From the NCBI GenBank assembly GCA_965549635.1, contig CBEVHI010000001.1:1-46201 (forward strand): DNA of 46,201 bases, written 5' to 3'. This document shows positions 6,080 through 46,201 of this stretch, one piece after another. Each line of letters opens with the position of its first letter. Position 1 is the first letter of the stretch. The position numbers and the translations under genes are program-made. This stretch comes from an uncultured bacterium (lineage in GTDB: Bacteria > Actinomycetota > Acidimicrobiia > Spongiisociales > UBA4744). The notes beneath the pieces were generated by a model, which did not search any database, was not told the DNA's origin, and saw only the letters and a program-made list of their open reading frames with translations.

Positions 6080-6081
6080 GA

Positions 6082-24918: not shown

Positions 24919-25875
24919 GTGTTGCAGGCTGTGAGCAGAGTCGGACTTGTCCTCGGCGGTGGCGGTGTCACCGGAGCCTCCTATCACATGGCAGCGCTCC
25001 TGGCGCTGCAGATGGCCACTGGATGGGCGCCAGATGCAGCCGATGTCGTGGTCGGGACCTCTGCCGGTGCGTTCGCGGCATCGATCGTTCGGTCACAGGC
25101 CCTGTCGCTCGACTCGATCGTCAAGCCCGGGGAGCGACAAGAGGATGTGGCGGACCGGATCCGTTCCTGGGTCTATCGCAAGAGCCGCTTCCGTGGAGTC
25201 GGCCGTTGGATGCGCCGGGGAATCGTCCCCAGCATCCGGCATCCAGGACTGACTGCCGTCCTTGGCGCTCCAGGACGGTACGACGCAGCAGGCATTGGAG
25301 ACTGGGTGGCAGCGCAGGCGCCCGAGGTCGCCCCCACATGGCCCGAACGACCTACCGTCATCGTCGCCTATGACCTCGAAGAACGAAGAAGGGTTGCCTT
25401 CGGCACCCTGAATGCCCCCGACGTGGCTCTGCGCGACGCGGTGGCTGCATCCTCGGCGGTGCCGATCGTGTTCTCTCCCTACGAAATCAAGGGGAAAAGC
25501 TACGTCGACGGCGGCGTCGTCTCCGGAACGAACGCCGATCTCGTGCTCGGCAATCCGCAACCTCTCGACTTGCTGCTCGTCCTTGCCCCGATGGCCGCGG
25601 AAGAGCAGCGCAGCCGCGCCCGCTTCTACGAACAGATCTTCGATCGCGTCGGTCGCTCCGCGCTGCATGACGAGCTGGTAGCAATCGCCTCTGCATGGCC
25701 GGCGACCGACACACTCGTGCTGCGTCCCACACCCGCCGTGCTGGCGGTGATGCGCCCAAACCCGATGGATCCCAACCAGGCGGTTCCCACCTTTGTGAGA
25801 ACCCTTGCCTCCCTACGGACGAAGCTCGCCGCCCCTGAGGTCTGGCAGGTTCTCGAACGTCATCTCGTCGCCTGA
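24919..25875 (+). CDS. patatin-like phospholipase
   Basis: Contains the oxyanion loop [11 protein letters not shown], the nucleophile elbow GTSAG and the catalytic Asp motif YVDGG. The track start at 24802 overlaps the previous gene. A GTG/TTG start at 24919-24931 is more likely. Confidence 0.85.
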
Positions 25876-26861
25876 ACCGAGTCCAATTCCCCAAAGAGCC
25901 GGTCCTTCTCCCCCGCAGAGACGAACGCCGCTTCGATCGAGTTCCGAGCAAGCGCGATGAGGTCCTCCCTCGTCAGCTGGAGAGAAGACTCCGCCGCCAG
26001 ATAGTTGTCGAGCAGGTAGCCACCGAAGTAGGCGGGATCATCCGAGTTGATCGTCACCAAGGCGCCGGCGTCCAGAAGCCTCTTCAGATTGTGCTCCTGC
26101 ATGCTGTCGAACACGTGGAGACGTACGTTCGACAGTGGGCACATCGTGAGGGGGATGCGTTCGGAGATGACACGCTGCAGCAGAGCCGGGTCCTCCTCGA
26201 TCCGGACCCCATGATCGATCCGTTCAACGCCGAGAACGTCGAGCGCCTGTCGTATGTACTCCGGCGGTCCTTCCTCTCCGGCGTGGGCAACCAGGCGCAG
26301 TTCTTCACGACGGGCCCGGTCGAAGACGCCACGGAACAAGACGGGGGGGCGGCCCCGCTCGGATGAGTCGAGACCGACACCCACGATCCAAGACCGATAC
26401 CGGAGCCCGTCCTCGAGCGTCTCCATCGCCTCCTCGGGACTGAGGTGCCTCAGGAACGACAGAATGAGTCCTGCGGAAACCCCGAGTTCTCGAGCATCCT
26501 CGATCGCGCGATGCAGACCGGTGATCACCGTCGAGAAGGGGATCCCCCTCGCGGTGTGCGTCTGGGGATCGAAGAAGATCTCTGCGCGACGCACCCCGTC
26601 GGCAGCTGCACGCTGGAGGTAGGCCAAGGCGAGGTCGTAGAAGTCCTGCTCGGTGCGAACGGCGGCGGCAGTCTGGTAGTAGACGTCGAGAAAGGACTGC
26701 AGATCGCTGAATTCGTAGGCGGCGCGGAGCTCTTGAACCGAAGCAAAGGGGAGATCCACGTCGTTCTTCTCGGCCATCGCCAGGGCCATCTCAGGCTCGA
26801 GGGAGCCTTCTATATGGATGTGCATCTCGGTCTTGGGGAGGGCTCTCACAAAGTCGTCCAT
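25860..26861 (-). CDS. adenosine-deaminase-superfamily enzyme, adenine-deaminase (ADE) type
   Basis: 333 aa. N-terminus [17 protein letters not shown] resembles the fungal/bacterial adenine deaminase branch. The fold carries a later HAGE and a C-terminal SDDP metal/catalytic motif ([10 protein letters not shown]). Confidence 0.88.
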
Positions 26862-26962
26862 CGCTCTCCTATTCCCGGTTCCGGCCAGACTACGCCGGTA
26901 CGATACGAATGTGGAAAACCACGCTGTCGGTCAAGCCCCAACACGATAGGAACGACCACGCC

Positions 26963-28321
26963 ATGTCTGGGACTCTCCTCGTCAAACACGCATCCGTTCT
27001 CGTCACCATGGATGAGCATCGACGGGAGATCTCTGACGGCGCGCTGTTCGCCCGGGACGGATGGATCGAACAGGTGGGAGCAACCGCCGAGCTTCCGTCT
27101 ACCGCCGATGAAGTCATTGACGCCTCAGGGCACATCGTCATCCCCGGTCTGATCAACACTCACCATCACCTCTACCAGACCTTGACGCGAGCACTCCCTG
27201 GCACACAGGACGCCGAGCTTTTTCCATGGCTCCAGACCCTCTACCCGGTATGGGAGAGGATCAGACCCGACGACGTGAGGGTCTCTGCCGAAGTCGGTCT
27301 CACCGAACTGGCTATGAGTGGCTGCACGACCACTTCGGATCATCTCTACCTGTTCCCCAACGGCAGCCGACTCGACGACGAGATCGAAGCCGCCAGAAGG
27401 GTGGGGCTGCGTTTCCATGCCGCACGCGGATCGATGAGTCTCGGTGAGAGCGATGGCGGGCTTCCCCCCGACTCGGTTGTCGAAGATGAGGACACGATCC
27501 TTGACGACACCAGGAGGGTGATCGAGACGTACCACGATGGCGAACCCGGCTCCCTGCTCCGGATCGTGGTGGCGCCGTGTTCACCATTCTCGGTGACGAC
27601 GGCAGCCATGCGCGAGTCCGCAGAGCTTGCTCGCTCCTACGGAGTGTCACTCCACACGCACCTCGCTGAAACGTTCGACGAGGAGGCGTTCTGCAGGGCG
27701 CAGTTCGGGCTCGATCCCGTTGCCTATGCCGAGAGTGTGGGATGGGTCGGCGAGGACGTTTGGTTCGCCCATGGCGTCCACATCGATGACGCCGGCATCG
27801 CCCTCATGGCCCGAACCGGAACCGGGGTGGCCCACTGTCCGGCCTCCAACATGCGTCTCGGGTCGGGCATCGCTCCTGTTGCCGAGTATCTGGACACCGG
27901 TGTTCGGGTCGGACTCGGTGTCGATGGCTCGGCGTCCAATGACGGCAACGACCTGCTCGGAGAGGCACGGCTCGCGATGCTCCTGGCCAGGGTTCTCCAT
28001 GGTGAGCGGCCCCTCCTCGGTGTGCGCACAGCCCTCGAAATCGCCACTCTCGGCGGCGCTGCCGTCCTTGGCCGCGAAGACATCGGCTCCCTGGCGACCG
28101 GCAAGACCGCCGACTTCGCGGCCTTCGACCTCAACCGTATCGAGTATGCAGGCGCCGGCGAGGATCCGGTTGCCGGCCTGCTCCTGTGCGCTCCCACCCG
28201 GGCCGTCTACACGTATGTCCATGGGCGAGCCGTCGTTCACGAGGGCAGACCGGTCGGCGTCGAAATCGAACCCCTCATCGAGGAGCACTCCAAGGCAGCT
28301 CACCGTCTCGTTGCTGGATAG
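26963..28321 (+). CDS. amidohydrolase of the 8-oxoguanine deaminase / guanine deaminase / SsnA group
   Basis: N-terminus LLVKHASVLVTMDEHRREI.DG.L...DG.I..VG, the metal motif GLINTHHHLYQTLTRA, and later HLAET and HGVH. Start set to ATG 26963. Confidence 0.85.
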   Translation: MSGTLLVKHASVLVTMDEHRREISDGALFARDGWIEQVGATAELPSTADEVIDASGHIVIPGLINTHHHLYQTLTRALPGTQDAELFPWLQTLYPVWERIRPDDVRVSAEVGLTELAMSGCTTTSDHLYLFPNGSRLDDEIEAARRVGLRFHAARGSMSLGESDGGLPPDSVVEDEDTILDDTRRVIETYHDGEPGSLLRIVVAPCSPFSVTTAAMRESAELARSYGVSLHTHLAETFDEEAFCRAQFGLDPVAYAESVGWVGEDVWFAHGVHIDDAGIALMARTGTGVAHCPASNMRLGSGIAPVAEYLDTGVRVGLGVDGSASNDGNDLLGEARLAMLLARVLHGERPLLGVRTALEIATLGGAAVLGREDIGSLATGKTADFAAFDLNRIEYAGAGEDPVAGLLLCAPTRAVYTYVHGRAVVHEGRPVGVEIEPLIEEHSKAAHRLVAG

Positions 28322-28328
28322 CGCTCCG

Positions 28329-30539
28329 TCAGGAAGACAATGTTGCGATGTCCTCGGGTCGGAGCGGCAGCCGGGTGAGGTCGCGTCCAGTGGCAGCGCG
28401 AACGGCTGCAGCGACGGCAGCCGTTGAAGAGATGGAGGGAAGCTCCGCGAAGCCTTTGGCACCGAACGGACCCCAGCTTCCCGGCTGTTCCACGATGACG
28501 GCTTCCACCGGCGGCATGTCTTCGATCGTGGGAAGGAGGTAGTCGGTGAAGGTCGGGTTCTTGATGACACCATTGTCGAGAATGACTTCTTCGAGAAGCG
28601 CCATCCCGAATCCTTGAGCGATCCCCCCCTCGATCTGTCCAACCACCTGAACCGGGTTCAGCATTCTGCCGACGTCCTGGGCCGTGTCGATCCGCACAAC
28701 CCGCACCAGCCCCAGCTCCGGGTCCACGTCGACGACCGCCCTGTGTGCCGCGACACAGAAGTCGACATGAACGTCCCCCTGGCCGTTCTCATCGGGAGGC
28801 TCCGTGTCGGGATGCCGGAACCGCACCTCGGCCACGATCGGAGCGTCGGCGCAGAGCTCGGCCCAAGATGCGACCAGGCGATCTCCCTTTCTCACGCCTT
28901 CGTCGTCCAGTGTGTCGCCTCCGGCTCGCTCCAAGGCTTGGGATCGTGCTTCTCGAGCGGCTTGCTCCACCGCTCCCCCGGCCATTTGGGTCTGCCTCGA
29001 CGCCGAGGAGGAACCGGCGGAGCCGATGTGGGCGGTGTCGTCCCACACGACTTCCACCCGGTCCATGCCCAGAACGCTCCTGGCGATCTGCATCAGGACG
29101 GTCACCATGCCCTGCCCCACCTCTGCTGCGGCGGTGTGCACCTTGGCACCATCGGCGGTGATCTCCACGCGCGCGTCCGCGAAGTCGTCAAATCCTTCCG
29201 AGAATGCCAGGTTCTTGATCCCGACCGCGTAGCCGACACCTCTCACCACTGCGCCCGGTGGTGTCGTCAGCCCGCTGCCACCGGGGAGACGATCTGTTTC
29301 GTCGCCGGGAAGGGGGATCGCCATCACCGACCGGATCACTTCTTCCGTCGGCAGCGGCTCCGTGATCACCTGCCCGCTGGTGGCGAGGCGGTCACCGGGG
29401 TGCAGGGCATTGCGGAGACGCAGCTCGAGCGGATCCACGCCCAGTGCCGCTGCGAGTCGATCCATCTGTGCCTCGTAGGCAAAGCAGACCTGGTTGGCGC
29501 CGAATCCTCGCATCGCGCCGGTCGGCGGATTGTTGGTTCGTACGGCATACCCTTCGACAAACGTGTTCGGGCAGCGGTACGGGCCGACCGTGAAGTACAC
29601 CGCGTTGGCGAGCACCGCGTCCGTCGTGTTCGCGTAGGCACCACCGTCGAGCAGCAACTTGGCTTCGACGCGCACCAGCGTGCCTGCTTCGTCGCACTCA
29701 TGCCGGTACCACATGTGTGCGCTGTGGCGCTTCACGTGACCGGTGAAACTCTCGAACCGGTTGAACACCATCTTGACGGGACGTCCGGTGTGCAAGGCCA
29801 GCATGCACAAGTGGGTGTGCAGACTCAGATCTTCACGCGACCCAAAGGCTCCCCCGAGCCCGGTCGGGTGGACGCGAACTTGTCCCGGATCCAGTGCCAG
29901 GCATCGCGTGAGCTGTTCGTGGTCGACATGGATCCACTGGGAGGGTGGATACAGATCGACGCCACCTGCGCCGTCGGGGATGGCGATACCGGCCTCGGTC
30001 CCCAGGGGCGCCTGATCGATGTTCGGGGTTTCGTAGTAGCCCTCGATCACTACCGAACCGTGCGCGGCCGGATCGCCCCGGCGGATCGTCATGTGGCGAA
30101 ACACCTCTCCCCTGTCGAGCGCCTCCTCGAGATCTGTCAACGGTTCGAGCGGCTCGAGTTCGACAACGATCGCATCGGCCGCCGCCCGGGCGAGGTCCCG
30201 GTTGTCTGCTGCCACGATGGCGACCGCCTCCCCCCAATACCTGATCTCGCCTTCGGCGAGGACCGGTTGATCCTGGACGATCTGCCCCTGGTAGCCGAAG
30301 CCGGGCACATCGTTCTGGGTGAGGACCGCCTGCACACCCGGCATGGCGAGCGCCGGGGTGACATCGATGGCGACAATGCGGGCTCGCGCAACGTACGCCC
30401 TCCTCGTGGCTCCCCACAACATTTCTTCCGCGTGGAGATCGCCGACATACGCGAAGGTTCCCGTGACTTTCGGTACGCCGTCCGGCCGCTGGACGGACTC
30501 GCCAACGCCACCTCTGACACGACGGTCGACGATGGTCAT
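28329..30539 (-). CDS. xanthine dehydrogenase-family molybdopterin-binding large subunit
   Basis: About 736 aa. N-terminus G.SV.R.DG..KVTG.F.Y..D, with GGAFGSRE and AMRGFG motifs. ATG at 30539 forms an ATGA overlap with the 2Fe-2S subunit stop. Confidence 0.9.
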   Translation of the reverse strand: MTIVDRRVRGGVGESVQRPDGVPKVTGTFAYVGDLHAEEMLWGATRRAYVARARIVAIDVTPALAMPGVQAVLTQNDVPGFGYQGQIVQDQPVLAEGEIRYWGEAVAIVAADNRDLARAAADAIVVELEPLEPLTDLEEALDRGEVFRHMTIRRGDPAAHGSVVIEGYYETPNIDQAPLGTEAGIAIPDGAGGVDLYPPSQWIHVDHEQLTRCLALDPGQVRVHPTGLGGAFGSREDLSLHTHLCMLALHTGRPVKMVFNRFESFTGHVKRHSAHMWYRHECDEAGTLVRVEAKLLLDGGAYANTTDAVLANAVYFTVGPYRCPNTFVEGYAVRTNNPPTGAMRGFGANQVCFAYEAQMDRLAAALGVDPLELRLRNALHPGDRLATSGQVITEPLPTEEVIRSVMAIPLPGDETDRLPGGSGLTTPPGAVVRGVGYAVGIKNLAFSEGFDDFADARVEITADGAKVHTAAAEVGQGMVTVLMQIARSVLGMDRVEVVWDDTAHIGSAGSSSASRQTQMAGGAVEQAAREARSQALERAGGDTLDDEGVRKGDRLVASWAELCADAPIVAEVRFRHPDTEPPDENGQGDVHVDFCVAAHRAVVDVDPELGLVRVVRIDTAQDVGRMLNPVQVVGQIEGGIAQGFGMALLEEVILDNGVIKNPTFTDYLLPTIEDMPPVEAVIVEQPGSWGPFGAKGFAELPSISSTAAVAAAVRAATGRDLTRLPLRPEDIATLSS

Positions 30540-30976
30540 TGCGTCCCCATCACGGCCCTGATGATGGACCCATAGCCGGTGCATCGACAGAGGTTGCCCG
30601 CGAGCGCCTCACGGACGTCCGCCTCGCTCGGGTGGGGATTGTGTTCGAGCAGGTTCGCCGCCGACATCACGATCCCCGGAGTGCAGTACCCACACTGTGC
30701 TCCACCGGTCTCCAGCAATGCCTCCTGAACGGGGTGCAACGTGCCTTCGGAGGTGATCCCTTCAATCGTGACGATCTCGGACCCGGCAGCATCGGCGGCC
30801 ATCACGAGACACGAGCACACCGTCACACCGTCCATGAGGACGGTGCACGATCCACACTCACCCTGCTCGCAGGCGTCTTTTGCTCCATACAGCCCGAGTT
30901 CGTCGCGCAGGAGACGCAGCAGACTCTCCGTACCGGCGGCCTCCACCGTGACCGTCTCGCCGTTGATCCGGAGCAT
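30536..30976 (-). CDS. (2Fe-2S)-binding small subunit of the molybdenum hydroxylase
   Basis: MLRINGE...C.QGECGSCTV....V.SC and the second cluster CGYCTPG....C.C.GY. Start re-set to ATG 30976, which forms an ATGA overlap with the FAD subunit stop. The track N-terminus is an Arg-rich artefact. Confidence 0.92.
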   Translation of the reverse strand: MLRINGETVTVEAAGTESLLRLLRDELGLYGAKDACEQGECGSCTVLMDGVTVCSCLVMAADAAGSEIVTIEGITSEGTLHPVQEALLETGGAQCGYCTPGIVMSAANLLEHNPHPSEADVREALAGNLCRCTGYGSIIRAVMGTQ

Positions 30977-31776
30977 CACAGCAGACGCTCCAGGGTTCTG
31001 CGGGCGATGACACCGACAGCGTGCCGCCGGTATTCGGCCGTTGAGCGATGATCGGTGATCGGCTGCGCCGCCTCGGAGACGAGACGCTGGAACTCGTCGA
31101 GCGCGGTAGTTGTCGGATGGGACTCGGCGGAGATCATCTCCTCCGCTGCGTGCGCCCGGATCACCGTCGGAGCCACTGCTCCGAGAGCAACTCGCGTGCG
31201 GCCGTCGTCGTAGCGGACGACGCACGCCGAGACAACGGCAATCACCATGGCGGCGCGTGGGCCGACCTTGGAGAACCCCTGTCTGGGTGGCAGGTCTTCG
31301 GGCAGCTTCACTCCTTCGATGATCTCCCCCGGCTGCAGGCTGGTCTGCTTGACGCCGACGAAGAACTCATTCCATGGCGTCTCTCTGCGTCCAAGGCGTT
31401 TCGAACGGGTGACGATCGAAGCGTCCATCGCTGCGAGGAACGGCAAGGTGTCGCCGGCAGGGCTGCCGGTGGCGATATTGCCGCCGATGGTTCCCGTGTT
31501 GCGGATCTGCGGTGAACCGATGGTTCGTGCTGCCTCTGCCAGTCCGGGCCATGGACTGTTCTCCAATCGCGCGTGGGTGACCCCGGCGCCAATCCAGTGC
31601 TCGGAGAGACCCAGCAGCTCTTCGACTCGACGAAGGGCGACAACCGAGTCTGGGCGTCGGAACCCGAAGTTGATCTCCACCATCAGGTCGGTGCCTCCGG
31701 CCAGACAGATGGCACCCGGGTCCTGCGCAAGCGCGTCGAGTGCTTCGGTGAGCGCCACGGGCGCCACTATCTTCAA
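30976..31776 (-). CDS. FAD-binding (CoxM/XdhB-like) medium subunit of the molybdenum hydroxylase
   Basis: Only the C-terminal ~266 aa of the 679-aa track ORF look like protein: LAGGTDLMVE, IRNTGTIGGNIA and the CO-dehydrogenase flavoprotein C-terminal region. Start proposed at TTG 31776 (LKIVAPV). GTG 31767 is an alternative. Confidence 0.82.
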   Translation of the reverse strand: MKIVAPVALTEALDALAQDPGAICLAGGTDLMVEINFGFRRPDSVVALRRVEELLGLSEHWIGAGVTHARLENSPWPGLAEAARTIGSPQIRNTGTIGGNIATGSPAGDTLPFLAAMDASIVTRSKRLGRRETPWNEFFVGVKQTSLQPGEIIEGVKLPEDLPPRQGFSKVGPRAAMVIAVVSACVVRYDDGRTRVALGAVAPTVIRAHAAEEMISAESHPTTTALDEFQRLVSEAAQPITDHRSTAEYRRHAVGVIARRTLERLL

Positions 31777-31809
31777 CCCAGGTCCCTTTCGATCTACCCT
31801 GCAGGCTAC

Positions 31810-32478
31810 ATGAATATCGACGAGACCCTCGGCAGCTGTGAACTCGAACTGGCGGCAGATCGCGGCCCCAACTTGAGAGCGCTCGGGTTCTGGCGTGCCG
31901 TCGCCGAAGTCAAGCGTCGACCCGAGCTCGCGGCGACCTATGCGGACCGCATTGCGGAGATCGACCGTGCCGCGTTTGCACGCTGGGCGCTCGTCACCGT
32001 CCCGCTCGGCCTCGGCACGACACTGATGATCTTGGGTACCGTGCTCGGTCTTGCGGTCACCTCTGCCGGGTACTTCCTCGACTCCCCTTGGAACGGGCTG
32101 GCGATCCTGATCGGGACGGGCATCCTGCTGGTCCCCACCCACGGGTTGGGCCACCTGATCGTCGGCCGTCTCCTCGGCATCGGCTTCACCGGCTGGTTCA
32201 TCGGCACATGGAAGATGCCCCAACCGGGCGTCAAACTGGACTACCGCTCCTACCTGCGCGCCTCTCCCCGGGCTCGAGCATGGATGCATGCTTCGGGGGC
32301 GATCGTCACCAAACTCATCCCCTTCCTGAACCTGGGTGCGGCCTGGGGTGCCGGCGTTCCAGGGTGGACCATGTGGACGCTCGTGATCCTGGGGGTCGTG
32401 ATGATCTTGACCGACGTTCTGTGGTCGACGAAAGCGTCGGACTGGAAGAAGTTCCGCAGAGAACTCCGCTACGTCTGA
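31810..32478 (+). CDS. hypothetical polytopic membrane protein with an HGLGH motif
   Basis: About 222 aa from ATG 31810. It has several clear hydrophobic helices and natural-looking composition. It is divergent from the hydroxylase operon. The minus-strand 679-aa ORF covering it is Arg/Pro/Gly-rich junk in this stretch. Confidence 0.55.
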   Translation: MNIDETLGSCELELAADRGPNLRALGFWRAVAEVKRRPELAATYADRIAEIDRAAFARWALVTVPLGLGTTLMILGTVLGLAVTSAGYFLDSPWNGLAILIGTGILLVPTHGLGHLIVGRLLGIGFTGWFIGTWKMPQPGVKLDYRSYLRASPRARAWMHASGAIVTKLIPFLNLGAAWGAGVPGWTMWTLVILGVVMILTDVLWSTKASDWKKFRRELRYV

Positions 32479-38392: not shown

Positions 38393-38400
38393 TCTTCTTC

Positions 38401-39354
38401 CTACTCCATCGCGCCCAGTACGAGCGAGAGCAGAGCCATGCGCATGACGACCCCGTTGTACGCCTCCTGCCAGTAGCGGGCGTGCTTCGTCGCATCCACA
38501 TCGGGCGGGAGCTCATCCATGCGTGGCAACGAGTGCAGAATGATGGCATCCGACTTCGCCTTGTCCGCAAGCAGCGCTCTGGTGACTTTGTAGTTGTCCG
38601 GCGTCTGACCGGTCTCGCCTGCTCGCTCGTCGCGGCCCTTGGTGTAGTCGGCCTGAACCACCGGCTCCATGTAGATCACGTCGGCTTCACCGATGACATC
38701 GCTGATGTGCTCGGCGGTCCTCACGAAGAGGTTCTGTTCGGCGAGTTCGGCCTTGAAGTCGTCGGTGAGTGACATCTCCGGCGGGGCGACGGAGATCATC
38801 TGGGCGTCGAACTGCGTCAGCGCGTAGCCGAGCGAGTGCATGGTGCGCATGCGCATGTCGCCGATCGCCACGAAGGTCAGGCCGTCGATCGTCCCCACTT
38901 CGGTCAGCACCGTGTAGAGGTCGGTGAGGATCTGCGTCGGGTGCTCGCCCCATCCGTCACCCGCGTTGATGACCGGCACACTGGACCACTTCGCGGCCTC
39001 GTGCGGTGCGCCCTGCTGGAAGTGACGCATGACGATCGCATCGCCGTAGTACTCCAGCATGTGCACGGTGTCCTTGATCGACTCCTGGTAGAAGTCGCCG
39101 GCGCGCGTCATCTTGGCATCCGAGAAGCCCAGCACGTGACCACCGAGACGATGCATCGCAGCCTCGTGGGCCATCCGGGTGCGTGTCGACGGCTGGTAGA
39201 AGGCGGTCAGCAGCGTCTTGTCGGCCAGCAGGTCCGTATTGCGCCGTTCCCGAGCGATCGGTTCCAGTTCGGAAGCCGTCTCGAACACATGCTCGAACTC
39301 GGCCCTCTCAAACCCTTTGAGGGACAGAATGTCCCGCCCGGCGAAACTTCTCAT
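38401..39354 (-). CDS. aspartate-carbamoyltransferase-fold paralog (catalytic-chain-like); second substrate uncertain
   Basis: About 317 aa from ATG 39354, with AAGGAG 6 nt upstream. It carries PSTRTR, MRH, HPTQ and HSLPR and is collinear with class B PyrB. No pyrimidine-pathway neighbours are present. Confidence 0.82.
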   Translation of the reverse strand: MRSFAGRDILSLKGFERAEFEHVFETASELEPIARERRNTDLLADKTLLTAFYQPSTRTRMAHEAAMHRLGGHVLGFSDAKMTRAGDFYQESIKDTVHMLEYYGDAIVMRHFQQGAPHEAAKWSSVPVINAGDGWGEHPTQILTDLYTVLTEVGTIDGLTFVAIGDMRMRTMHSLGYALTQFDAQMISVAPPEMSLTDDFKAELAEQNLFVRTAEHISDVIGEADVIYMEPVVQADYTKGRDERAGETGQTPDNYKVTRALLADKAKSDAIILHSLPRMDELPPDVDATKHARYWQEAYNGVVMRMALLSLVLGAME

Positions 39355-39512: not shown

Positions 39513-40682
39513 GTGGCGAGCGAAAGCACATCAACAGGAGCGGCCAGAGGCTTTCGCGCAGTCGCCGGGTCTCTCTTTCCGATCCTCGCCGTTGTCGCCG
39601 CCCTGCTCCTCGGAGCAGTGATGCTCCTGATCCTCGGTGCCAACCCGGTGACCGGCTTCGGCGCGATGATCGATGGAGCGTTCGGAAGTCTGCGCGCCCT
39701 CTCCGACACGGCAGCGAAGGCCGTTCCGCTGCTCCTCGTCGGCGTCGGAATCACGATCGCCTTCCGAGCGAACGTGATCAACATCGGCGGTGAGGGACAG
39801 ATCATCCTCGGCGCACTGTTCGGAACAGCACTCGCCTTGTTGATGCCCAACCTCCCGGCGTGGCTGCTTCTGCCCGGCGTGCTCTTCGCCGGTTTCGTCG
39901 GAGGCGCCCTGTGGGGGGCGATTCCCGGAGCCTTGAAGGCGTACTTCAACGTCAACGAGATTCTGAGCACGATCATGCTCAACATCGTCGCCGTTCAAGG
40001 CATGAACTTCCTTCTCCGCGGGCCGATGATGGACCCTGCAGAGATCGAGGCCGGCAGCCGCATCCCTCAGACCACCAGACTCGCGGAGGCAGCCGACCTG
40101 CCGGTCCTCATCAAGGGCACGCGACTGAACGGCGGAGTGATCATCGCGGTCGTCGCTGCCGTCGTCGTCTACTTCTTCCTCTGGCGGATGACCTCGGGTT
40201 TCCGGATTCGCGCCGTTGGGTTCAATCCCCACGCCTCCCGCTACGCGGGCATTCACGTGCAACGATCGGTCGTCCTCGCCCTCACCCTCAGCGGGGCGCT
40301 GTGCGGCCTCGCCGGCGTGGTTCTGGTCTTCGGCAGCGAGTCTCACCGGTTCGTCACCGATGGGTCCTCGACAGGGTTCACCGGCAGTGCCGGGTTCAAC
40401 GGCATCGTCGCCGCGCTCTTCGGCGGCCTCCATCCCCTCGGAACGATCCCTGCGTCGTTCCTCTTCGGGGCGCTGCTGGTCGGGGCGAACAAACTGCAGC
40501 GCGCCGTGCAAGTCCCTGCAGCCCTCATCATTGCGTTGAACGGGCTTGTCGTCGTGTTCGTCGTCAGTAGCGCCATCTGGAAGCGGCGCCTCGATCAACG
40601 GTTCCTCTTGAGGGCCGCGACCGCCGACCAGGTCGAAGCCGATGAGGAGGCCACGCAGTCAGGAGCCCCTCCCGATGGGTGA
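39513..40682 (+). CDS. ABC transporter permease (BMP/nucleoside-type, YufP/NupB-like)
   Basis: 389 aa and polytopic. The N-terminal pattern ..ILAVVAALLLGAVMLLILGANP and a central INIGGEGQ motif are typical of the branched sugar/nucleoside permease family. GTG start. Confidence 0.85.
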   Translation: MASESTSTGAARGFRAVAGSLFPILAVVAALLLGAVMLLILGANPVTGFGAMIDGAFGSLRALSDTAAKAVPLLLVGVGITIAFRANVINIGGEGQIILGALFGTALALLMPNLPAWLLLPGVLFAGFVGGALWGAIPGALKAYFNVNEILSTIMLNIVAVQGMNFLLRGPMMDPAEIEAGSRIPQTTRLAEAADLPVLIKGTRLNGGVIIAVVAAVVVYFFLWRMTSGFRIRAVGFNPHASRYAGIHVQRSVVLALTLSGALCGLAGVVLVFGSESHRFVTDGSSTGFTGSAGFNGIVAALFGGLHPLGTIPASFLFGALLVGANKLQRAVQVPAALIIALNGLVVVFVVSSAIWKRRLDQRFLLRAATADQVEADEEATQSGAPPDG

Positions 40683-41607
40683 GTTCTTCACCGCGGCGGT
40701 GCTGGTCTCGACGATCAGTTCCGGAATCCGGCTTGCCACGTCCTACCTCTACGCGGCGATTGGCGAGACGTTCGGGCAACGCAGCGGCGTGCTCAACCTG
40801 GGCGTCGACGGCATCATGCTCCTGGGCGCGTTTGGCGCCTACTACACGGTCCTCAAGACGGGCAATCTGTGGCTCGCTTTGGTGGTTGCGGCCGGTATCG
40901 GACTCATCATGGGACTTGCCATGGCGTTCGCCAGCGTCACTCTGCAGGCCGAGCAGGGGATCAGCGGGATCGGCTTCTACTTGTTTGGCCTCGGCATGAG
41001 CGATCTCCTCTTCCAGAAGCTCGTCGGGACGCCGCTTCCCATTCAAGGCTTCCCTGCCATCCACCTTCCGGTGCTGAGTGACATTCCCGTCGTCGGGGAT
41101 CTGCTCTTCTCCCACAGCCTGATGGTGTATGGAGCGTTCCTGCTCGTTCCGGCAGCTGCCTTCGTTCTCAACAAGACCACCATTGGCCTGAAGATACGAT
41201 CCGTCGGAGAGAATCCCGAGGCGGTCGACACCCTCGGCGTCTCGGTGGCAAAGGTCCGCTACGCGACGGTCATGTTCGGCAGCATGCTGGCCGGAATCGG
41301 AGGGGCAGCACTGGCCACAGAACTCGGGATCTTCCAGCAGAACCTGACGGCCGGACAGGGTTTCATCGCCGTCGCCCTCGTCTACTTCGGCGCATGGCGC
41401 CCCCTCGGCGTGATGCTCGGCGCACTGTTGTACGGATTCGTCGCAGCCATCGTCCTGCAGCTCAAGACGCTTGACGTCATCCCCCGCAGCGCATCGGACC
41501 TTGCGGCAATGCTCCCCGCCCTCATCACGATTCTTGCCCTCGTCGTTGCCGTCCAGAGAGATCGGCAACCGGCAGCACTGACCAAGCCCTATCAAAGAGG
41601 GGAATGA
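40675..41607 (+). CDS. ABC transporter permease (second subunit, YufQ/NupC-like)
   Basis: About 310 aa. N-terminus LATSYLYAAIGETFGQRSGVLNLGVDG is typical. Start set to ATG 40675, overlapping the upstream stop by 8 nt. Confidence 0.85.
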   Translation: MGEFFTAAVLVSTISSGIRLATSYLYAAIGETFGQRSGVLNLGVDGIMLLGAFGAYYTVLKTGNLWLALVVAAGIGLIMGLAMAFASVTLQAEQGISGIGFYLFGLGMSDLLFQKLVGTPLPIQGFPAIHLPVLSDIPVVGDLLFSHSLMVYGAFLLVPAAAFVLNKTTIGLKIRSVGENPEAVDTLGVSVAKVRYATVMFGSMLAGIGGAALATELGIFQQNLTAGQGFIAVALVYFGAWRPLGVMLGALLYGFVAAIVLQLKTLDVIPRSASDLAAMLPALITILALVVAVQRDRQPAALTKPYQRGE

Positions 41608-41630
41608 CCAGACAGAAAGGAAGACACCCA

Positions 41631-42665
41631 ATGCGGAAACTATTGATTATCGGCGTGCTCGTGCTTGCACTCATCGCCACGGCTTGTTCGAGCGGAACGA
41701 CAGAGACCACTGCCGCCCCGGCAACAACTGCGGCGGCCGCCACGACCGCCGCGCCTGCGGAGCCATTCAAGGTTGCGCTGATCGCACCGAGCGCCATCAA
41801 CGATCTGGCGTTCACGCAGAGCATGAACGACGCACTCACCAAGATCCAGAGCGACATGGGCGGCGAATCGGCAATGGAGATTGCGGTCACCGATGGAACG
41901 TTCGTCGTCGAGGACGCCGCCGCGGCGATCCGTGACTACGCCAACGATGGCTACGACCTCGTGATCGCCCACGGTTCGCAGTACGGAGGCTCTCTGAAGG
42001 AGATCGCGCCGGACTTTCCCGACACGTCCTTCGCGTGGGGGACGGCAGGAGACACGTTCGGCCTGCCGAACGTCTTCGCCTATGAGGCCGCATCCGAAGA
42101 AGGCGGCTACGTCATGGGTGTGATGGCAGCTGCCCTGTCCGAATCGGGCGTGCTCGGTGTCGTTGGGCCGATCGAGGTCGGCGATGCCAAACGCTATGTG
42201 GATGGATTCGCGGCGGGAGCGGTCGCCCAGGATGCCGCGGCCGACGTGAAGATCAACTACACGGGGTCCTTCAGCGACGTGGCACTCGCAGCCGAGGCGG
42301 CACGAGCAGAGATCGGCGCAGGTGCCGATGTCCTCACCGGGACCGCGCAGATGGTCGTCGGAGCGGTTGGCGTCGCCAAAGATGACGGTGTGCTGTGGTT
42401 CGGAACCCAGGCAGACCAGACGCAGCTCGCTCCGGACATCGTCGTCGCTTCGCAGGTGTACCACTGGGAGGTCGTCATCCAGGAGATCATCGACCTGATG
42501 GACCAGGGGACGATGGGCGGCAAGTCGTTCTCCGTGGATCTCGCCAACGGTGGTGAGGTCGTCGCCTTCAACCCCGGATTTGACCTGCCTGCTGACGTGA
42601 AGCAACTCGCCGAGGACACGATCGCGGGTATCTCGGACGGATCGATCAACCCGCCACGACCGTAG
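41631..42665 (+). CDS. BMP-family (PnrA/Med-like) ABC substrate-binding lipoprotein
   Basis: Signal peptide with lipobox (LIATAC), an Ala/Thr-rich linker, then FKVALI.PS.INDL.F of basic-membrane-protein-type purine/nucleoside binders. AAAGGAAG RBS precedes ATG 41631. Confidence 0.88.
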   Translation: MRKLLIIGVLVLALIATACSSGTTETTAAPATTAAAATTAAPAEPFKVALIAPSAINDLAFTQSMNDALTKIQSDMGGESAMEIAVTDGTFVVEDAAAAIRDYANDGYDLVIAHGSQYGGSLKEIAPDFPDTSFAWGTAGDTFGLPNVFAYEAASEEGGYVMGVMAAALSESGVLGVVGPIEVGDAKRYVDGFAAGAVAQDAAADVKINYTGSFSDVALAAEAARAEIGAGADVLTGTAQMVVGAVGVAKDDGVLWFGTQADQTQLAPDIVVASQVYHWEVVIQEIIDLMDQGTMGGKSFSVDLANGGEVVAFNPGFDLPADVKQLAEDTIAGISDGSINPPRP

Positions 42666-42678
42666 GGAGAGAACAGGC

Positions 42679-44268
42679 ATGGCACCTCGGGGAACTGATC
42701 CCGGATCACCAACCGCTGCAACAGGGCAGACCGGTATCGATCTGGAGATGCGCGGCATCGTCAAGCAGTTCCCCGGGGTGCTCGCCAGTGATCACGTCGA
42801 CTTCGACGTTCGCAGAGGCGAGATCCACACCCTGCTCGGAGAGAACGGCGCCGGGAAGTCGACGCTGATGAAGATTCTCTACGGGCTCCATCAACCAGAT
42901 GAGGGTCAGATCGTGATCGATGGAGAACCGGTCACGATCCACTCCCCCGCCGACGCCATAGCTCACGGCATCGGGATGATCCACCAGCACTTCATGCTGG
43001 TCGAGACGATCACCGTCGCAGAGAATGTGGCGCTCGGTCTCCCATCGTCGCGGGGGATGCTGATGGATCTCGAGGTGGTGTCGGAGCGCATCCATGAGCT
43101 TTCGGAGACCTACGGCATCAAGGTCGACCCGAGTGCGTATGTCTGGCAGCTGTCCGTCGGCGAACAGCAGCGGGTCGAGATCATCAAGGCCCTCTATCGC
43201 AACGCGGCCCTGCTTGCACTCGACGAACCGACCGCGGTGCTGACCCCCCAGGAAGTCGACGACCTCTTCGTCACCCTTCGAGCCATGGCCGCCGACGGCC
43301 ACCCGCTCATCTTCATCTCCCACAAACTGCACGAGGTGCTCGACATCAGCGATCGCATCACCGTGCTGCGGAATGGACGAAAGATGGGGACCGTACCTGC
43401 GCAAGGAGCCACCAGGGCCAGCCTCGCTCGGATGATGGTGGGGCGCGAGGTGGTCCTCGAACGCGACCGCAAACCCGCCACCATCGGCGCTCCTCGCCTC
43501 GAGGTCAGGGAACTCAAGGCGCTGAACGACCGGGGGCTCGAAGCACTCCGGGGGATCGATCTGGAGGTCCGCTCGGGAGAGATCCTGGCGATCGCCGGAG
43601 TCTCAGGAAACGGTCAGCGGGAACTGGCACAGGTGATCGCCGGTCTCAGGCCCCCCACAGAGGGAAGTGTCCTGTTGGACGGTACCGACGTCAGTCGCTG
43701 GGAACCGCGAAAGCGCCGCGACGCCGGCCTCGCCTACATACCGGAGAAGCGGATGCGTGACGCAGCCATCCAGCAGTTCACCGTCGCAGAGAATCTCATG
43801 CTGCACGACTACGACAGACCCCCTTTCGCGCGAGCAGGGTTTCTCGACTTCGGGCAGATCGAACGACACTGCGAGCAACTGATCGAAGATTTCCGTGTGA
43901 AGACGCCAACTCAGGCGACCCCCCTGCGAGCGCTGTCCGGCGGCAACATCCAGAAGATGGTCCTGGCCAGAGAACTGTCGGGAAACCCGAAGGTGCTGAT
44001 TGCGGCCCAACCGACACGGGGGGTGGACATCGGCGCCACCGAATACATCCACCAACGCCTTCTCGACCAGCGTTTCATTCACGAGAAGCTCCTGAGCCAG
44101 CGAAAAGCAGGAACGGCGACACTGCTCATCTCTGAGGATCTCGACGAAATCCTGGCCCTCGCCGATCGGATCGCCGTGATCTACGAGGGGACGATCATGG
44201 GCATCCTCGATCGCGACGACGCCACGGTGGAGCAGCTCGGTTTGATGATGGCCGGCGTCACCGAATAG
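42679..44268 (+). CDS. ABC transporter ATP-binding protein with duplicated ATPase domains
   Basis: 529 aa. Domain 1 has Walker A GENGAGKST, signature LSVGEQQR and Walker B LLALDEPT. A second, degenerate domain has GVSGNGQ, LSGGNIQK and LLISEDLDE. Confidence 0.92.
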   Translation: MAPRGTDPGSPTAATGQTGIDLEMRGIVKQFPGVLASDHVDFDVRRGEIHTLLGENGAGKSTLMKILYGLHQPDEGQIVIDGEPVTIHSPADAIAHGIGMIHQHFMLVETITVAENVALGLPSSRGMLMDLEVVSERIHELSETYGIKVDPSAYVWQLSVGEQQRVEIIKALYRNAALLALDEPTAVLTPQEVDDLFVTLRAMAADGHPLIFISHKLHEVLDISDRITVLRNGRKMGTVPAQGATRASLARMMVGREVVLERDRKPATIGAPRLEVRELKALNDRGLEALRGIDLEVRSGEILAIAGVSGNGQRELAQVIAGLRPPTEGSVLLDGTDVSRWEPRKRRDAGLAYIPEKRMRDAAIQQFTVAENLMLHDYDRPPFARAGFLDFGQIERHCEQLIEDFRVKTPTQATPLRALSGGNIQKMVLARELSGNPKVLIAAQPTRGVDIGATEYIHQRLLDQRFIHEKLLSQRKAGTATLLISEDLDEILALADRIAVIYEGTIMGILDRDDATVEQLGLMMAGVTE

Positions 44269-44278
44269 GACCGTTCTT

Positions 44279-44315
44279 GTGACGCTCGACGCGGATAGTC
44301 CGAGCGAAGCGTCAC
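44279..44315. terminator. hairpin between the convergent ABC ATPase and YgfK-like genes
   Basis: GTGACGCT...AGCGTCAC forms an 8-bp outer stem, with partial inner pairing. It spans the 43-nt convergent gap and overlaps the YgfK-like stop codon. There is no clear U-tract. Confidence 0.35.
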
Positions 44316-46201
44316 GAGAAGGTTGGTGCTTCGATCCGACCGCCGGCCTCCGAGCGTGCCGACGGCAGATGCTGCATCGATGTCTCCAGACCTTCCAGAA
44401 TCGTGAACATCGTGGCCGCCTCGAAGAGCGTGAGCACCGTGCCGGCCGACCCTGAGGCATCGAGCACCGAGAACGTCTCCGGATCGAGCGTCGCCGACCC
44501 TTCAGGTCCGCGATAGGAGACGGAACCGTTGAGATCGATCCGGTGCGTGGCGCCGTCGAATCTTCCCTCCATCGAACGAACCCCGTCGGCCTCGAACAAC
44601 ATGAAGGCGTTGTTCGCCTGTGCGAGGAAGTCATCTCTGTTGAGGTACAACCGCGGCTTGTCCCGATAAGGCTCACCCGCGGTGGGACAGAAGGTGACGC
44701 AGTTGCCGCACTCGTTACAGAAGTCGGTCAGTACGGCGATCTGGTATTCCTGATCGACCGACAACGTCGACCCGGGGCTGACATGCGTGGCGCCATCCTC
44801 GAACGACACCTTCGACAGTTCGAACGACCTCGGCTTCGTCGCATAGGTCATCAGCGCCATGTTCGGACACACTCCGACGCAGATGCTGCAGTACAGGTCG
44901 CAGTCCAGACAGCGCGAAGCCTCCGCTTTCGCCTCCTCGACCGTGTACGGGTAGGTCGATACGGCGAAGTTCTTCCTCTCTGCGACGGGCACGTGGGTGA
45001 TGGGAACCCGAAACTCTCGGTGGGCTTTGCGCACCTGGAGGTCCGCCACGTCGAACTCGGGCAAGGCACGCGGCTTGGGAGCGACCGCACCTCCCTGTCT
45101 GGCGATGATGGCCGCGGCCGCCGCTTTCCCGTCCGCGGCTGCCTTGACGATCGATGCGGGTCCCGAAGCTGCGACGTCCCCCGTCGCGAAGACTCCGGCT
45201 ACCGACGTCTCCATCGAGAACGGATCCACCGCCAGGTAGCCGCGGTCTGTCAACTGAGGCTGCTCATCGCCAAAGAAGTCGATGAGCGTGTGTTGACTGA
45301 TCGCAAGGATGAGCATGTCGAACGGAAGCTCGAACTCGGAGCCTTCGATCGTGTGGGGGATCTTGCGCCCTGAGGCGTCCCTGTCGCCCCGGTACTCGTT
45401 GCGAACACAGATGAGTCCGACAAGGGAACCATCCTCGATGTGCAGAGCGGCCGGACTCGCCAGTTCCTCGATGGCGATGCCTTCTTCTCGGAGGGCATGA
45501 ATCTCCTCGCGGTCGGCGGGCATCTGATCGATGGTCCGCCGGTACACAACCGTCACCTGATCGGCGCCGAGACGCCACGCCGTCCGGGCGCAGTCCATGG
45601 CGGTGTCTCCTGCACCGATGACGGCGACTCGCTTGCCGACCGGCACCGGGTGACCTTCTCTTGCCGCTCTCAAGAAGTGCAGGGCGTCCATCACGCCATC
45701 GGCATCCTCACCGGCGAGACCGAGTTTCTTTCCGATCTGCGCACCGGTGCCCACGATGATGTACCGGTAGCCCTGTCGGCGCAGGTCGGCAATCGCGAAG
45801 TGCTTGCCTGCAGTTTGCCCGTAGCGGATTTCGACCCCGAGCGATTCGAGGACGCGCAGATCCTTGTCGATCTCCGGCTGCGGCAGCCGGTATTCGGGAA
45901 TCGCTCCTGCGACCATGCCGCCCGGATACTGATGATGCTCGAAGATCGTCACCGAGTACCCGGCCATCGCCAGGAGTTGCGCTGCCGAAATGCCAGCCGG
46001 CCCCGCACCAATGATCGCAACCGGTATCCCGTTCGGTGGGGCTTGGGGCACCAGATCGGGATCTGCCTCGTGCTCCATGATGAACCGCTTCATGTCGCGG
46101 ATCGCCAGCGGTTCGTCGTAGTGGGTTCGAATGCACGTGTGCTCGCAGAGGTGGTCGCACACCTGACCGAGAATCGTCGGGATGGGATTGTCCTGGCGGG
46201 T
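44312..46201 (-). CDS. YgfK-like Fe-S flavoprotein (GltD/NADPH-dependent glutamate-synthase-beta-like domain plus ferredoxin-type C-terminal domain); 5' end beyond window
   Basis: The frame is open to base 46201 (TRQDNPIPTILGQVCDHLCEHTC, a GltD-type Cys cluster). Two dinucleotide folds follow (IIGAGPAGISAA, VIGAGDTAMDCA). The C-terminus has two 4Fe-4S motifs, CLDCDLYCSICVGVCP and CNECGNCVTFCP. Confidence 0.85.
   Translation of the reverse strand, partial: TRQDNPIPTILGQVCDHLCEHTCIRTHYDEPLAIRDMKRFIMEHEADPDLVPQAPPNGIPVAIIGAGPAGISAAQLLAMAGYSVTIFEHHQYPGGMVAGAIPEYRLPQPEIDKDLRVLESLGVEIRYGQTAGKHFAIADLRRQGYRYIIVGTGAQIGKKLGLAGEDADGVMDALHFLRAAREGHPVPVGKRVAVIGAGDTAMDCARTAWRLGADQVTVVYRRTIDQMPADREEIHALREEGIAIEELASPAALHIEDGSLVGLICVRNEYRGDRDASGRKIPHTIEGSEFELPFDMLILAISQHTLIDFFGDEQPQLTDRGYLAVDPFSMETSVAGVFATGDVAASGPASIVKAAADGKAAAAAIIARQGGAVAPKPRALPEFDVADLQVRKAHREFRVPITHVPVAERKNFAVSTYPYTVEEAKAEASRCLDCDLYCSICVGVCPNMALMTYATKPRSFELSKVSFEDGATHVSPGSTLSVDQEYQIAVLTDFCNECGNCVTFCPTAGEPYRDKPRLYLNRDDFLAQANNAFMLFEADGVRSMEGRFDGATHRIDLNGSVSYRGPEGSATLDPETFSVLDASGSAGTVLTLFEAATMFTILEGLETSMQHLPSARSEAGGRIEAPTFS

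Follow-up and report, generated by a model that had tools for sequence, protein, structure and literature searches.

The DNA analysed here, a 46,201-bp window of contig CBEVHI010000001.1 from an uncultured Acidimicrobiia bacterium, carries between position 25860 and its end at 46201 a contiguous block of purine genes that probably encodes a modified reductive urate (2,8-dioxopurine) pathway, with a proposed funnel and proposed upper and lower steps. From the contig end inward, the block holds a truncated YgfK homologue, an ATP-binding cassette (ABC) importer, two carbamoyltransferases and a carbamate kinase, two fold-type II pyridoxal 5'-phosphate (PLP) enzymes, an alcohol dehydrogenase (ADH), a small membrane protein, a three-subunit xanthine dehydrogenase and two purine deaminases. 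Such a block had been predicted from the letters of the window, and every gene family named in that original prediction is present by Pfam and NCBIfam. Open reading frames (ORFs) were picked by their third-position GC content and then scanned against both collections, with start codons refined by comparison with relatives and with the gene calls on contig L001, which is 99.66% identical to the window over 13,523 bases, gapless, and runs 4.5 kb further. Loci from other genomes and metagenomes are numbered in the same way.

The chemistry of the reductive urate pathway, which the original prediction still called not fully resolved, was worked out in 2025 in E. coli and Clostridia, both gut bacteria (Li et al., PMC12507026; Liu et al., bioRxiv 10.1101/2025.04.24.650524). 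According to these two papers, urate is reduced to 2,8-dioxopurine by XdhD-YgfM or by the selenium-dependent DOPDH, YgfK reduces the ring, SsnA opens it to give ureidomethylhydantoin and HyuA converts this to 2,3-diureidopropionate. YgeW then uses phosphate to release carbamoyl phosphate, from which YqeA makes ATP, the other ureido group is hydrolysed by YgeY, and YgeX converts 2,3-diaminopropionate to pyruvate and ammonia. The surveys in the same papers marked 'YgeW' by PF00185 and 'YgeX' by PF00291, with the SsnA InterPro family as the anchor. ThrC-like or CysK-like enzymes or a second carbamoyltransferase are mentioned in neither paper, and we found no description of such a PLP pair or of a two-carbamoyltransferase variant in the literature searched.

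The five-gene module and the YgfK end of the cluster

Five genes on the reverse strand form the lower module of the cluster. The carbamate kinase (36296-37282), the enzyme that makes ATP from carbamoyl phosphate and ADP, exceeds the cut-offs of two models (NF009007, 387 against 266; TIGR00746, 360.6 against 358) and is 50% identical to E. coli YqeA. Next to it lies an OTC/YgeW-like carbamoyltransferase (OTCl, 37289-38263; Pfam OTCace_N and OTCace) that falls under every NCBIfam cut-off, scoring 264 against 306 for the OTC model and 175 and 171 against 453 and 500 for the YgeW models. OTCl is 33% identical to YgeW (E 2e-53), keeps all of the carbamoyl-phosphate ligands and carries the motif Y[PA]KSW, which it has in common with YgeW, in place of the DxxxSMG ornithine motif of ornithine carbamoyltransferase (OTCase). 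By its sequence, OTCl is likely the YgeW equivalent.

The second carbamoyltransferase, which resembles aspartate carbamoyltransferase (ATCase) and is termed ATCl here (38401-39354), passes TIGR00670 (260 against 237), and this pass is misleading. The STRT and HPxQ motifs, R105, R167 and all of the carbamoyl-phosphate ligands are kept, whereas K84 has become Y, other residues stand in the place of R229 and Q231, and HSLP is found where HPLP is expected (E. coli numbering), changes that are invariant in 8-9 family members. With the aspartate residues K84, R229 and Q231 lost and the neighbouring genes catabolic, PyrB was rejected as the identity of this protein. By alignment against Table 1 of Barba et al. 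2013 (PMC4016543), ATCl shows instead the features of the pseudo-ATCases (STRT and HPTQ kept, RxQ lost, HSLP as the third motif), so that the added ATCase-fold carbamoyltransferase of the original prediction fits a group noticed in 2013. Subgroup 1 of these proteins is the ureidoglycine carbamoyltransferase of Rubrobacter xylanophilus, which works with carbamate kinase, and subgroup 2 includes a pseudo-ATCase of Nocardioides sp. JS614 that adjoins a ygeW homologue, xdhABC and hyuA and was given no function (PMC4016543). ATCl shares the ATCase fold with them and HSLP with subgroups 2 and 3, and it lies by a YgeW-like gene and xanthine dehydrogenase as in Nocardioides and with carbamate kinase as in Rubrobacter; the residues at its RxQ position ([V/M]EP or PVV by alignment) come closer to the VxP of subgroup 3 than to subgroup 2. 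It differs in having no allantoinase or uricase in its context and in its proposed substrate, which would be a ureido-propionate rather than allantoate.

The first of the two PLP enzymes, ThrCl (35067-36299), is ThrC-like with an N-terminal Cys-rich ribbon (PALP, 229 bits), scores 298.6 against the threonine synthase model NF006050, slightly under the cut-off of 303, and aligns with bacterial threonine synthases at E 1e-49. Omi et al. reportedly identified in 2003 the residues of T. thermophilus ThrC that bind the phosphate of O-phosphohomoserine as T88, N154, S155, R160 and N188. In the ThrCl family, T88 is replaced by A, S155 by G or A, R160 by M or T and N188 by D in 57-58 of 58 members, with N154 and the PLP lysine K61 kept (T. 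thermophilus ThrC numbering). Because these phosphate ligands are changed in essentially all members, and with the model score under its cut-off, we rejected threonine synthase as the function of ThrCl. The invariant Asp gives a hint only that the substrate carries a cationic group.

Its partner, CysKl (33516-34988), is a CysK- and cystathionine beta-synthase (CBS)-like enzyme of ~490 residues, extended at both ends, that reaches only 42 bits against PALP and scores 83 against 351 for TIGR01139 (cysK) and 55 against 510 for TIGR01137. The PLP lysine K111, the 'STGNY' Asn loop and the EGIG motif align with CBS and CysK, and the best solved relative (E 2.8e-17) covers the core only, with none close enough to inform. 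The family is 67-90% identical across phyla. Both cysteine synthase and CBS were rejected as its identity, the scores being far below the family cut-offs and the length ~490 aa against ~300 aa. We also rejected, as too poor for a fold search, an AlphaFold2 model of CysKl (mean pLDDT 61.5, catalytic core <50) built from a 13-sequence alignment in which the homologues are all at least 72% identical. The pair as a whole is like threonine synthase and cysteine synthase/CBS in fold, PLP lysine and substrate-carboxylate (Asn) loop, and unlike them in that ThrCl is without the phosphate-binding residues, CysKl has extra ends and both lie in a catabolic operon.

At the contig end, the window holds the C-terminal 630 codons of a YgfK homologue (44312-46201, reverse strand; matching TIGR03315 positions 489-905). 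The full-length protein on L001 has 1184 residues, scores 923.5 against the TIGR03315 cut-off of 835.3 and is 42% identical to E. coli YgfK over one half and 34% over the other, which, together with the matches to YqeA and YgeW, bears out the predicted gene logic of the E. coli ygeW-ygfK/xdhD region. Directly downstream of YgfK on L001, and outside the window, lies a 340-residue amidohydrolase that is 32% identical to residues 56-438 of E. coli SsnA (E 5e-53). This short SsnA keeps the HxH, HxHxxE, His and Asp metal and catalytic motifs as well as WWRLD and PRSNxNN, two motifs that it shares with SsnA only, and it scores 263 and 245 against SsnA cut-offs of 444 and 455 because the N-terminal beta-sandwich domain is missing. 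Since nearly all of its 120 best relatives, mostly from Acidimicrobiia, are listed at exactly 340 residues, the short form is not an artefact. The older names of the YgfK, SsnA and YgeY models, which refer to selenate reductase or selenium metabolism, were rejected as functions given the 2025 biochemistry.

Beyond the short SsnA, L001 carries at 16256-16540 a 94-residue, half-size gene of the GDT1/UPF0016 cation transporter family, missing from that spot in L083 and L086, and then a Mo hydroxylase that is cut by the end of L001. This enzyme, Mo2, is an XdhD-like fusion of 2Fe-2S (Fer2_2) and Mo domains, 847-849 residues long and found upstream of SsnA in L083, L086 and L087; its best model is TIGR03311 (selenium-dependent xanthine dehydrogenase), with 642 bits on the truncated copy. 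Residue E606 of XdhD was considered as a marker of a urate-reducing Mo enzyme and rejected as uninformative, since the loop that carries it is peculiar to the E. coli protein. A third, three-subunit Mo hydroxylase (FAD, 2Fe-2S and a 767-residue Mo subunit) lies on the strand opposite Mo2 in L083 (3764-7339) and L086 (1-3057), in the former adjoining a nicotinate phosphoribosyltransferase, and either a purine or nicotinate is possible as its substrate.

Conservation of the cluster and proposed replacement of YgeX and YgeY

Species-representative genomes were scanned with CysKl as the anchor, which gave at least 590 loci, and 80 of these were kept with 10-kb flanks and searched by tblastn and blastp with the window proteins, the E. 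coli proteins and three representatives. ThrCl occurs in 57 of the 80, carbamate kinase in 40, OTCl in 39 and ATCl in 23; further counts are ~24 for a BMP-type ABC system, 16-17 for a HyuA-type hydantoinase, ~17 for Mo hydroxylases, 11 for YgfK, ~10 for YgeY (mostly without ATCl) and 9 for SsnA. At least one further pathway gene occurs in 36 of the 44 loci that span 18 kb or more. ThrCl lies directly upstream of CysKl on the same strand in 53 of 57 pairs, adjacent to it in 22 and with an insert of ~1 kb in 31.

The closest relative of the cluster is that of L002/L083, where the order Mo2-SsnA-YgfK-ATCl-OTCl-carbamate kinase-ThrCl-CysKl-ADH-orfX-xanthine dehydrogenase-8-oxoguanine deaminase-adenine deaminase is the order of the window minus the ABC importer. 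The order recurs in L003 and, for the part that its locus covers, in L086, with the importer between YgfK and ATCl. The core order ATCl-OTCl-carbamate kinase-ThrCl-CysKl is conserved across at least five phyla, with the module found in Acidimicrobiia, Chloroflexota, Desulfobacterota, Terriglobia and Halanaerobiales, and the original prediction's proposed check for co-conservation, now run, thus speaks for a conserved arrangement and not for random adjacency. In the distant locus L050 (Terriglobia), the genes read SsnA-Mo-YgeY-YgeW-ThrCl-CysKl-FeS-Mo-YgfK, and other distant examples are L046 (Anaerolineales), L068 and L077 (Actinomycetota) and L070 (Halanaerobiales). Neighbours of the module include a HyuA-type hydantoinase (TIGR02033, 487 against 393; 38% identity to HyuA), YgeY (TIGR03526, 467 against 321; 40% identity to the E. 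coli protein) and a full-length SsnA (557 against 444; 38% identity to the E. coli protein).

E. coli YgeX is the best match for none of the ORFs in the 80 CysKl-anchored loci. As an independent check, metagenomes were scanned with full-length SsnA as the anchor, and of the resulting 80 loci 14 contain CysKl, 11 contain ThrCl and none contains YgeX; the two PLP genes often directly adjoin SsnA. Because YgeX is absent from all 160 loci of the two sets, the PLP pair appears to fill the YgeX slot in environmental versions of the cluster; E. coli shows the reverse, with YgeX and without the pair. A comparable relation holds between ATCl and YgeY. Among the loci with OTCl and enough upstream sequence, 12 have ATCl only, 7 have YgeY only, 1 has both and 3 have neither, a near mutual exclusivity (Fisher's exact p=0.006, for loci that are not phylogenetically independent), and we propose that ATCl replaces the hydrolase YgeY.

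The absence of hyuA, ygeY, uricase and allantoinase noted in the original prediction extends beyond the window. HyuA is found neither in the window and L001 nor within 10 kb of SsnA in L083, L086, L040, L068 and L077, and YgeY (M20), YgeX, uricase and allantoinase are found neither in the window nor in the 10 kb beyond SsnA in the relatives L083 and L086. The DNA past position 46201, which might have held a classical uricase/allantoinase pathway, shows none in L001, L083 or L086. Unannotated neighbours in L040, L046, L068 and L077 were considered as hydantoinases and rejected, being instead DUF3352, amidase, STAND ATPase, alpha/beta hydrolase, DHO_dh and L,D-transpeptidase proteins.

Several further features of these loci were observed in passing. 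An alpha/beta hydrolase (Hydrolase_4/Abhydrolase_6) lies near SsnA in loci without a hydantoinase, immediately upstream in L046 (9549-10559) and ~2.7 kb off, with YgfK between, in L040 (14665-15714), and might account for a hydrolytic step that has no enzyme assigned to it. L046 also has two DHO_dh (PydA/UacX-like) genes (12220-13131 and 16440-17726), one with a 4Fe-4S tail, in addition to a YgfK homologue, and this cluster may thus combine 2,8-dioxopurine reductases of the two known types. The SelB selenocysteine elongation factor is encoded near the module in 7 genome loci (for example L048, 18392-20275), and yqeB lies beside SsnA in 11 and yqeC in 4 of the metagenome loci (L089-L168); none of the three occurs in the Acidimicrobiia loci, and selenium dependence may differ between versions of the cluster. 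In L051 (9039-9971) and about 25 other Anaerolineae loci, a family-2 glycosyltransferase-like gene (Pfam E 1e-32) is inserted between ThrCl and CysKl, and conserved family-less ORFs (192, ~535, ~210 and ~392 residues) and a NuoM/Mrp-like membrane protein follow, which is odd for a catabolic operon.

A proposed reductive urate route and its alternatives

Given these genes, we propose a route in which, going by family, hypoxanthine comes from adenine deaminase, the three-subunit PucD-like dehydrogenase forms urate by oxidation of hypoxanthine and xanthine, and 8-oxoguanine deaminase provides urate directly, with the substrate probably imported by the BMP-type ABC system. Homology and synteny suggest that Mo2 would then reduce urate to 2,8-dioxopurine, YgfK would reduce its pyrimidine ring and the 340-residue SsnA would open the ring; two of these three upper-pathway genes (Mo2 and SsnA) lie just outside the window. 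Opening of the hydantoin ring, the job of HyuA, would fall either to an enzyme whose gene lies elsewhere in the genome or to one of those already described. Starting from hypoxanthine, the route would be redox-neutral, as the dehydrogenase would free four electrons and Mo2 and YgfK together would consume four.

Both ureido groups of the C3 intermediate 2,3-diureidopropionate would then most likely leave by phosphorolysis, one through OTCl and the other through ATCl in YgeY's stead. Family logic would have OTCl act on the side-chain 3-ureido group and ATCl on the 2-ureido group, which is a guess, and the carbamate kinase could yield two ATP per purine where the described route yields one. The ThrCl/CysKl pair would dispose of 2,3-diaminopropionate or of a mono-ureido precursor, replacing YgeX, with pyruvate and ammonia as the most likely product. 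For the removal of the ureido groups and for the PLP steps, it is the mutual exclusivity and the active-site changes described above that suggest these roles.

The proposed route is like that of E. coli, encoded by ygeW-ygeX-ygeY-hyuA-yqeA and ygfK-ssnA-ygfM-xdhD (PMC12507026), in having YgfK, a SsnA homologue next to it and then a fused FeS-Mo hydroxylase, together with carbamate kinase, a YgeW-like carbamoyltransferase and, nearby, a separate XdhABC-type dehydrogenase and purine deaminases. It differs in having no HyuA, YgeY or YgeX, a 340-residue SsnA below the cut-offs and a carbamoyltransferase outside the YgeW equivalog, in the added pseudo-ATCase and ThrC-like/CysK-like pair, in an ABC importer as against proton symporters, and in its host, an environmental actinobacterium. 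With the clostridial 2,8-dioxopurine pathway (C. sporogenes and C. difficile; 10.1101/2025.04.24.650524) it shares TIGR03311 as the best model of its Mo2 and ATP formation through a carbamoyltransferase and carbamate kinase, whereas the Acidimicrobiia loci have no yqeB, yqeC or selD-type genes, YgfK stands in the place of the PydA-like UacX, and the second ureido group is probably phosphorolysed here rather than hydrolysed by YgeY or UacY. Ureido phosphorolysis to carbamoyl phosphate and on to ATP is likewise known from the arginine and agmatine deiminase pathways, with their catabolic OTCase or putrescine carbamoyltransferase (PTCase) and carbamate kinase; here, in contrast, two carbamoyltransferases would act in series on one substrate, the substrate would derive from the purine ring and there is no deiminase.

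Several points weigh against the reductive urate route. All assignments below the level of the family are our own inference, and the loci counted are not phylogenetically independent. One step is unfilled, as the loci of the Acidimicrobiia type all lack a hydantoinase within 10 kb of SsnA. The E606 loop of XdhD is absent from both Mo2 and Mo1, the Mo subunit of the xanthine dehydrogenase, and the Mo enzyme taken to reduce urate was chosen by synteny alone. ThrCl lacks the YgeX residues D120 and D189 at the aligned positions, and because these catalytic aspartates are not conserved it gives no positive sign of lyase chemistry; that either PLP enzyme would act on diaminopropionate is likewise deduced from context. 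The assignment of one group to each carbamoyltransferase is a guess, the two reference papers being in conflict even on the ureido group removed by YgeW (PMC12507026; 10.1101/2025.04.24.650524). CysKl is alone, with no pathway gene within 10 kb, in 8 of the 44 long loci, and in about 20 Anaerolineae loci an ABC transporter and a hydantoinase accompany the lower module while SsnA, YgfK and Mo genes are all missing within 10 kb, so that the module may serve another ureido or hydantoin substrate.

These last two observations, the solitary CysKl genes and the Anaerolineae loci, also speak for a reading in which the upper pathway is unchanged and the five-gene module handles a different ureido compound, be it allantoate or ureidoglycine as in Rubrobacter or an imported hydantoin or dihydropyrimidine, its adjacency reflecting a general clustering of purine and pyrimidine genes. 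We regard this as unlikely, if still a serious contender. The ureidoglycine carbamoyltransferase that works with carbamate kinase is a precedent for it, being a pseudo-ATCase of another subgroup (PMC4016543), but the window, L001, L083 and L086 contain no uricase, 5-hydroxyisourate (HIU) hydrolase, 2-oxo-4-hydroxy-4-carboxy-5-ureidoimidazoline (OHCU) decarboxylase or allantoinase, and the hydantoinase associated with the module is of the HyuA/dihydropyrimidinase type, scoring 240 against the allantoinase cut-off of 358. The module furthermore adjoins SsnA and/or YgfK directly in several phyla (L046, L050, L068, L077, L139, L155, L157, L163 and L165) and co-occurs with orthologues of YgeY and YgeW, which are specific to the reductive route. 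Alternatively, the PLP pair might be no catabolic substitute for YgeX at all and might salvage the C3-N unit, by beta-replacement of diaminopropionate or albizziin to give serine, cysteine or another amino acid, or act as a racemase plus a lyase, with an end product other than pyruvate. The CysK/CBS beta-replacement scaffold of CysKl, with its PLP lysine, Asn loop and EGIG motif, would suit such a role, as would the loss from ThrCl of the catalytic aspartates of diaminopropionate ammonia-lyase (DAPAL), the presence of two enzymes where a simple lyase step needs fewer, and the ADH that adjoins the pair in Acidimicrobiia. The pair nevertheless shares operons with carbamate kinase, which is a mark of catabolism that yields energy, it turns up precisely in the loci that have no YgeX, and it has no sulfur or acetyl-donor gene nearby, and we consider the salvage role improbable, more so than a different ureido substrate.

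Much the least credible explanation is that ordinary biosynthetic genes (pyrB, argF, arcC, thrC and cysK) and a xanthine dehydrogenase lie together by chance with no common pathway. Such a reading would take at face value the TIGR00670 pass of ATCl, the near pass of ThrCl against the threonine synthase model and the public annotation of CysKl as 'cysteine synthase'. It is contradicted by the loss of the aspartate ligands in ATCl and of the phosphate ligands in ThrCl, by the scores of CysKl and OTCl far from or under the cut-offs of those families, and by the gene order kept across at least five phyla, and we give it next to no weight.

Within the reductive urate reading, the original prediction of a re-assorted route with differing intermediates holds for the enzymes, as a second carbamoyltransferase and ThrC-like and CysK-like enzymes have indeed been added. 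Different intermediates are possible as well, although it is more economical to suppose the intermediates of the described route with non-orthologous enzymes at three steps. Read in this way, the cluster is a version of the pathway described in 2025 that has non-orthologous enzymes substituted at three points and SsnA in a minimal form, and it is widespread in environmental bacteria. Only tentatively do we go further and join all of the parts, namely a widespread version that gains two ATP per purine by means of the pseudo-ATCase, a ThrCl/CysKl chemistry undescribed for either family, a minimal SsnA that may spare the hydantoinase, and a version probably missed by surveys; taken together, we would rather bet against this full combination than on it.

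The reductive urate pathway has until now been described only in gut bacteria, and the present cluster would place it in environmental Acidimicrobiia, with related versions in Chloroflexota, Desulfobacterota, Terriglobia and Halanaerobiales. For the pseudo-ATCases, long without a function, it puts forward a definite substrate that can be tested; it also points to twice the ATP from the ureido groups and gives a first physiological context to the very large, conserved CysKl family of PLP enzymes (at least 590 species-level genomes), called 'cysteine synthase' in databases, and likewise to a ThrC paralogue mislabelled 'threonine synthase'. In public records of relatives (P0125, P0241 and P0001), CysKl is named 'cysteine synthase' and the short SsnA is called '8-oxoguanine deaminase' in one; these names, and a PyrB call on ATCl, are probably wrong and set to propagate. 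The published surveys have probably overlooked this version, since they took as the marker of the pathway a family whose thresholds the minimal SsnA does not reach; any survey that relies on the SsnA family or on Pfam domains will probably miss or lump such variants.

Predicted purine funnel, importer and genomic setting

At the inner end of the block, an ADA-family purine deaminase (25860-26861, reverse strand) scores 300 bits against PF00962 and 509 against the NF006850 cut-off of 419, and its best solved relatives are 3OU8/3PAO (Pa0148; 3OU8, E 1.5e-115) and 3RYS (AAur1117). Proteins of the Pa0148/AAur1117 type are said to have been found by Goble et al. in 2011 to deaminate adenine, not adenosine. 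The predicted label of an adenine-deaminase type is thus reasonable, and the product is most likely a cog1816-type adenine deaminase that converts adenine to hypoxanthine. The adjoining gene on the forward strand (26909-28321) encodes an 8-oxoguanine deaminase, which forms urate from 8-oxoguanine (NF006055, 685 bits against 532; solved relatives 3HPA, E 1e-180, and 7WW2, '8-oxoguanine deaminase', E 2e-165). The original prediction had left it between SsnA and 8-oxoguanine deaminase, and the second label stands; SsnA was rejected, with scores of 138 and 124 under cut-offs of 444 and 455 and 24% identity to E. coli SsnA, and the true SsnA homologue is the short protein outside the window.

The xanthine dehydrogenase is encoded on the reverse strand by a PucD-like Mo subunit (Mo1, 28329-30539; Pfam Ald_Xan_dh_C, MoCoBD_1 and MoCoBD_2), a 2Fe-2S subunit (30536-30979; Pfam Fer2 and Fer2_2, with pucE and XdhC-type models) and a FAD subunit (30976-31776; Pfam FAD_binding_5 and CO_deh_flav_C, with XdhB-type models). 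Mo1 scores 734 against TIGR03196 (pucD), slightly under the cut-off of 783, and its start at 30539, which overlaps the upstream stop by 4 bp, gives 736 residues, the length found in L002. Divergent from this operon, with ~33 bp between the start codons, lies orfX (31810-32478, forward strand), a small predicted membrane protein of 222 residues with ~4 hydrophobic segments by hydropathy and a THGLGHLIVGR stretch. It has no match in Pfam or NCBIfam, is 61% identical to the gene in the same place in L002 and L003 and is outside the conserved core of the cluster. The Zn-dependent ADH (32469-33464, reverse strand; TIGR02822, 382 against 283) lies beside the PLP genes only in Acidimicrobiia loci (L002, L003, L059, L083 and L085) and is a lineage-specific accessory gene.

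Between ATCl and YgfK, on the forward strand, lies a BMP/PnrA-type ABC importer of two permeases, a binding protein and a double-ATPase (39621-44268; Pfam BPD_transp_2 twice, Bmp, and ABC_tran twice; gene calls taken from L001), which probably takes up purines or nucleosides. It is present in L086 and absent at the same position in L002/L083, and relative to L002 it is an insertion. The divergent intergenic region between ATCl and the permease has no inverted repeat that could serve as an operator, and only ~70 of its bases are conserved in an alignment with L086. A scan for promoters and terminators gave matches no commoner than in shuffled sequence, and no riboswitches or other RNAs were found in the window and three extensions.

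The remainder of the window fits the actinobacterial backbone that had been predicted. The closest genomes are uncultured Acidimicrobiia metagenome-assembled genomes (MAGs), and a housekeeping block (671-23578) holds relA/spoT, apt (phosphoribosyltransferase), secF, secD, tgt, queA, ruvB, ruvA, yebC and pdxS along with thrS and genes for PIM-type transferases (a GT4 glycosyltransferase and an acyltransferase of the lipid-A type), citrate synthase, an EF-G paralogue and an MMPL transporter, in an order that we take to be a conserved arrangement typical of Actinobacteria. A patatin gene and an ORF at 23705-24529 flank the cluster and are both kept beside it in L002 and L003, the GC content is uniform (0.62-0.65 over the whole window), and the window has no tRNA gene. 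On these grounds a recently acquired mobile island was ruled out and the block is a resident cluster; what had been predicted as an island is thus a real cluster and not a recent acquisition.

The window appears to be a complete MAG contig, and YgfK is therefore truncated by the assembly and not by the choice of window. The cluster is cut at YgfK by the contig end and continues at least 6 kb beyond it, so that the whole purine catabolic cluster would span about 30-35 kb, of which the window holds one part. In L086, three genes (3212-7075), two of them with N-terminal prepilin-type methylation motifs, lie between the two Mo hydroxylase operons, and this insert looks like an unrelated pilin/pseudopilin cassette.

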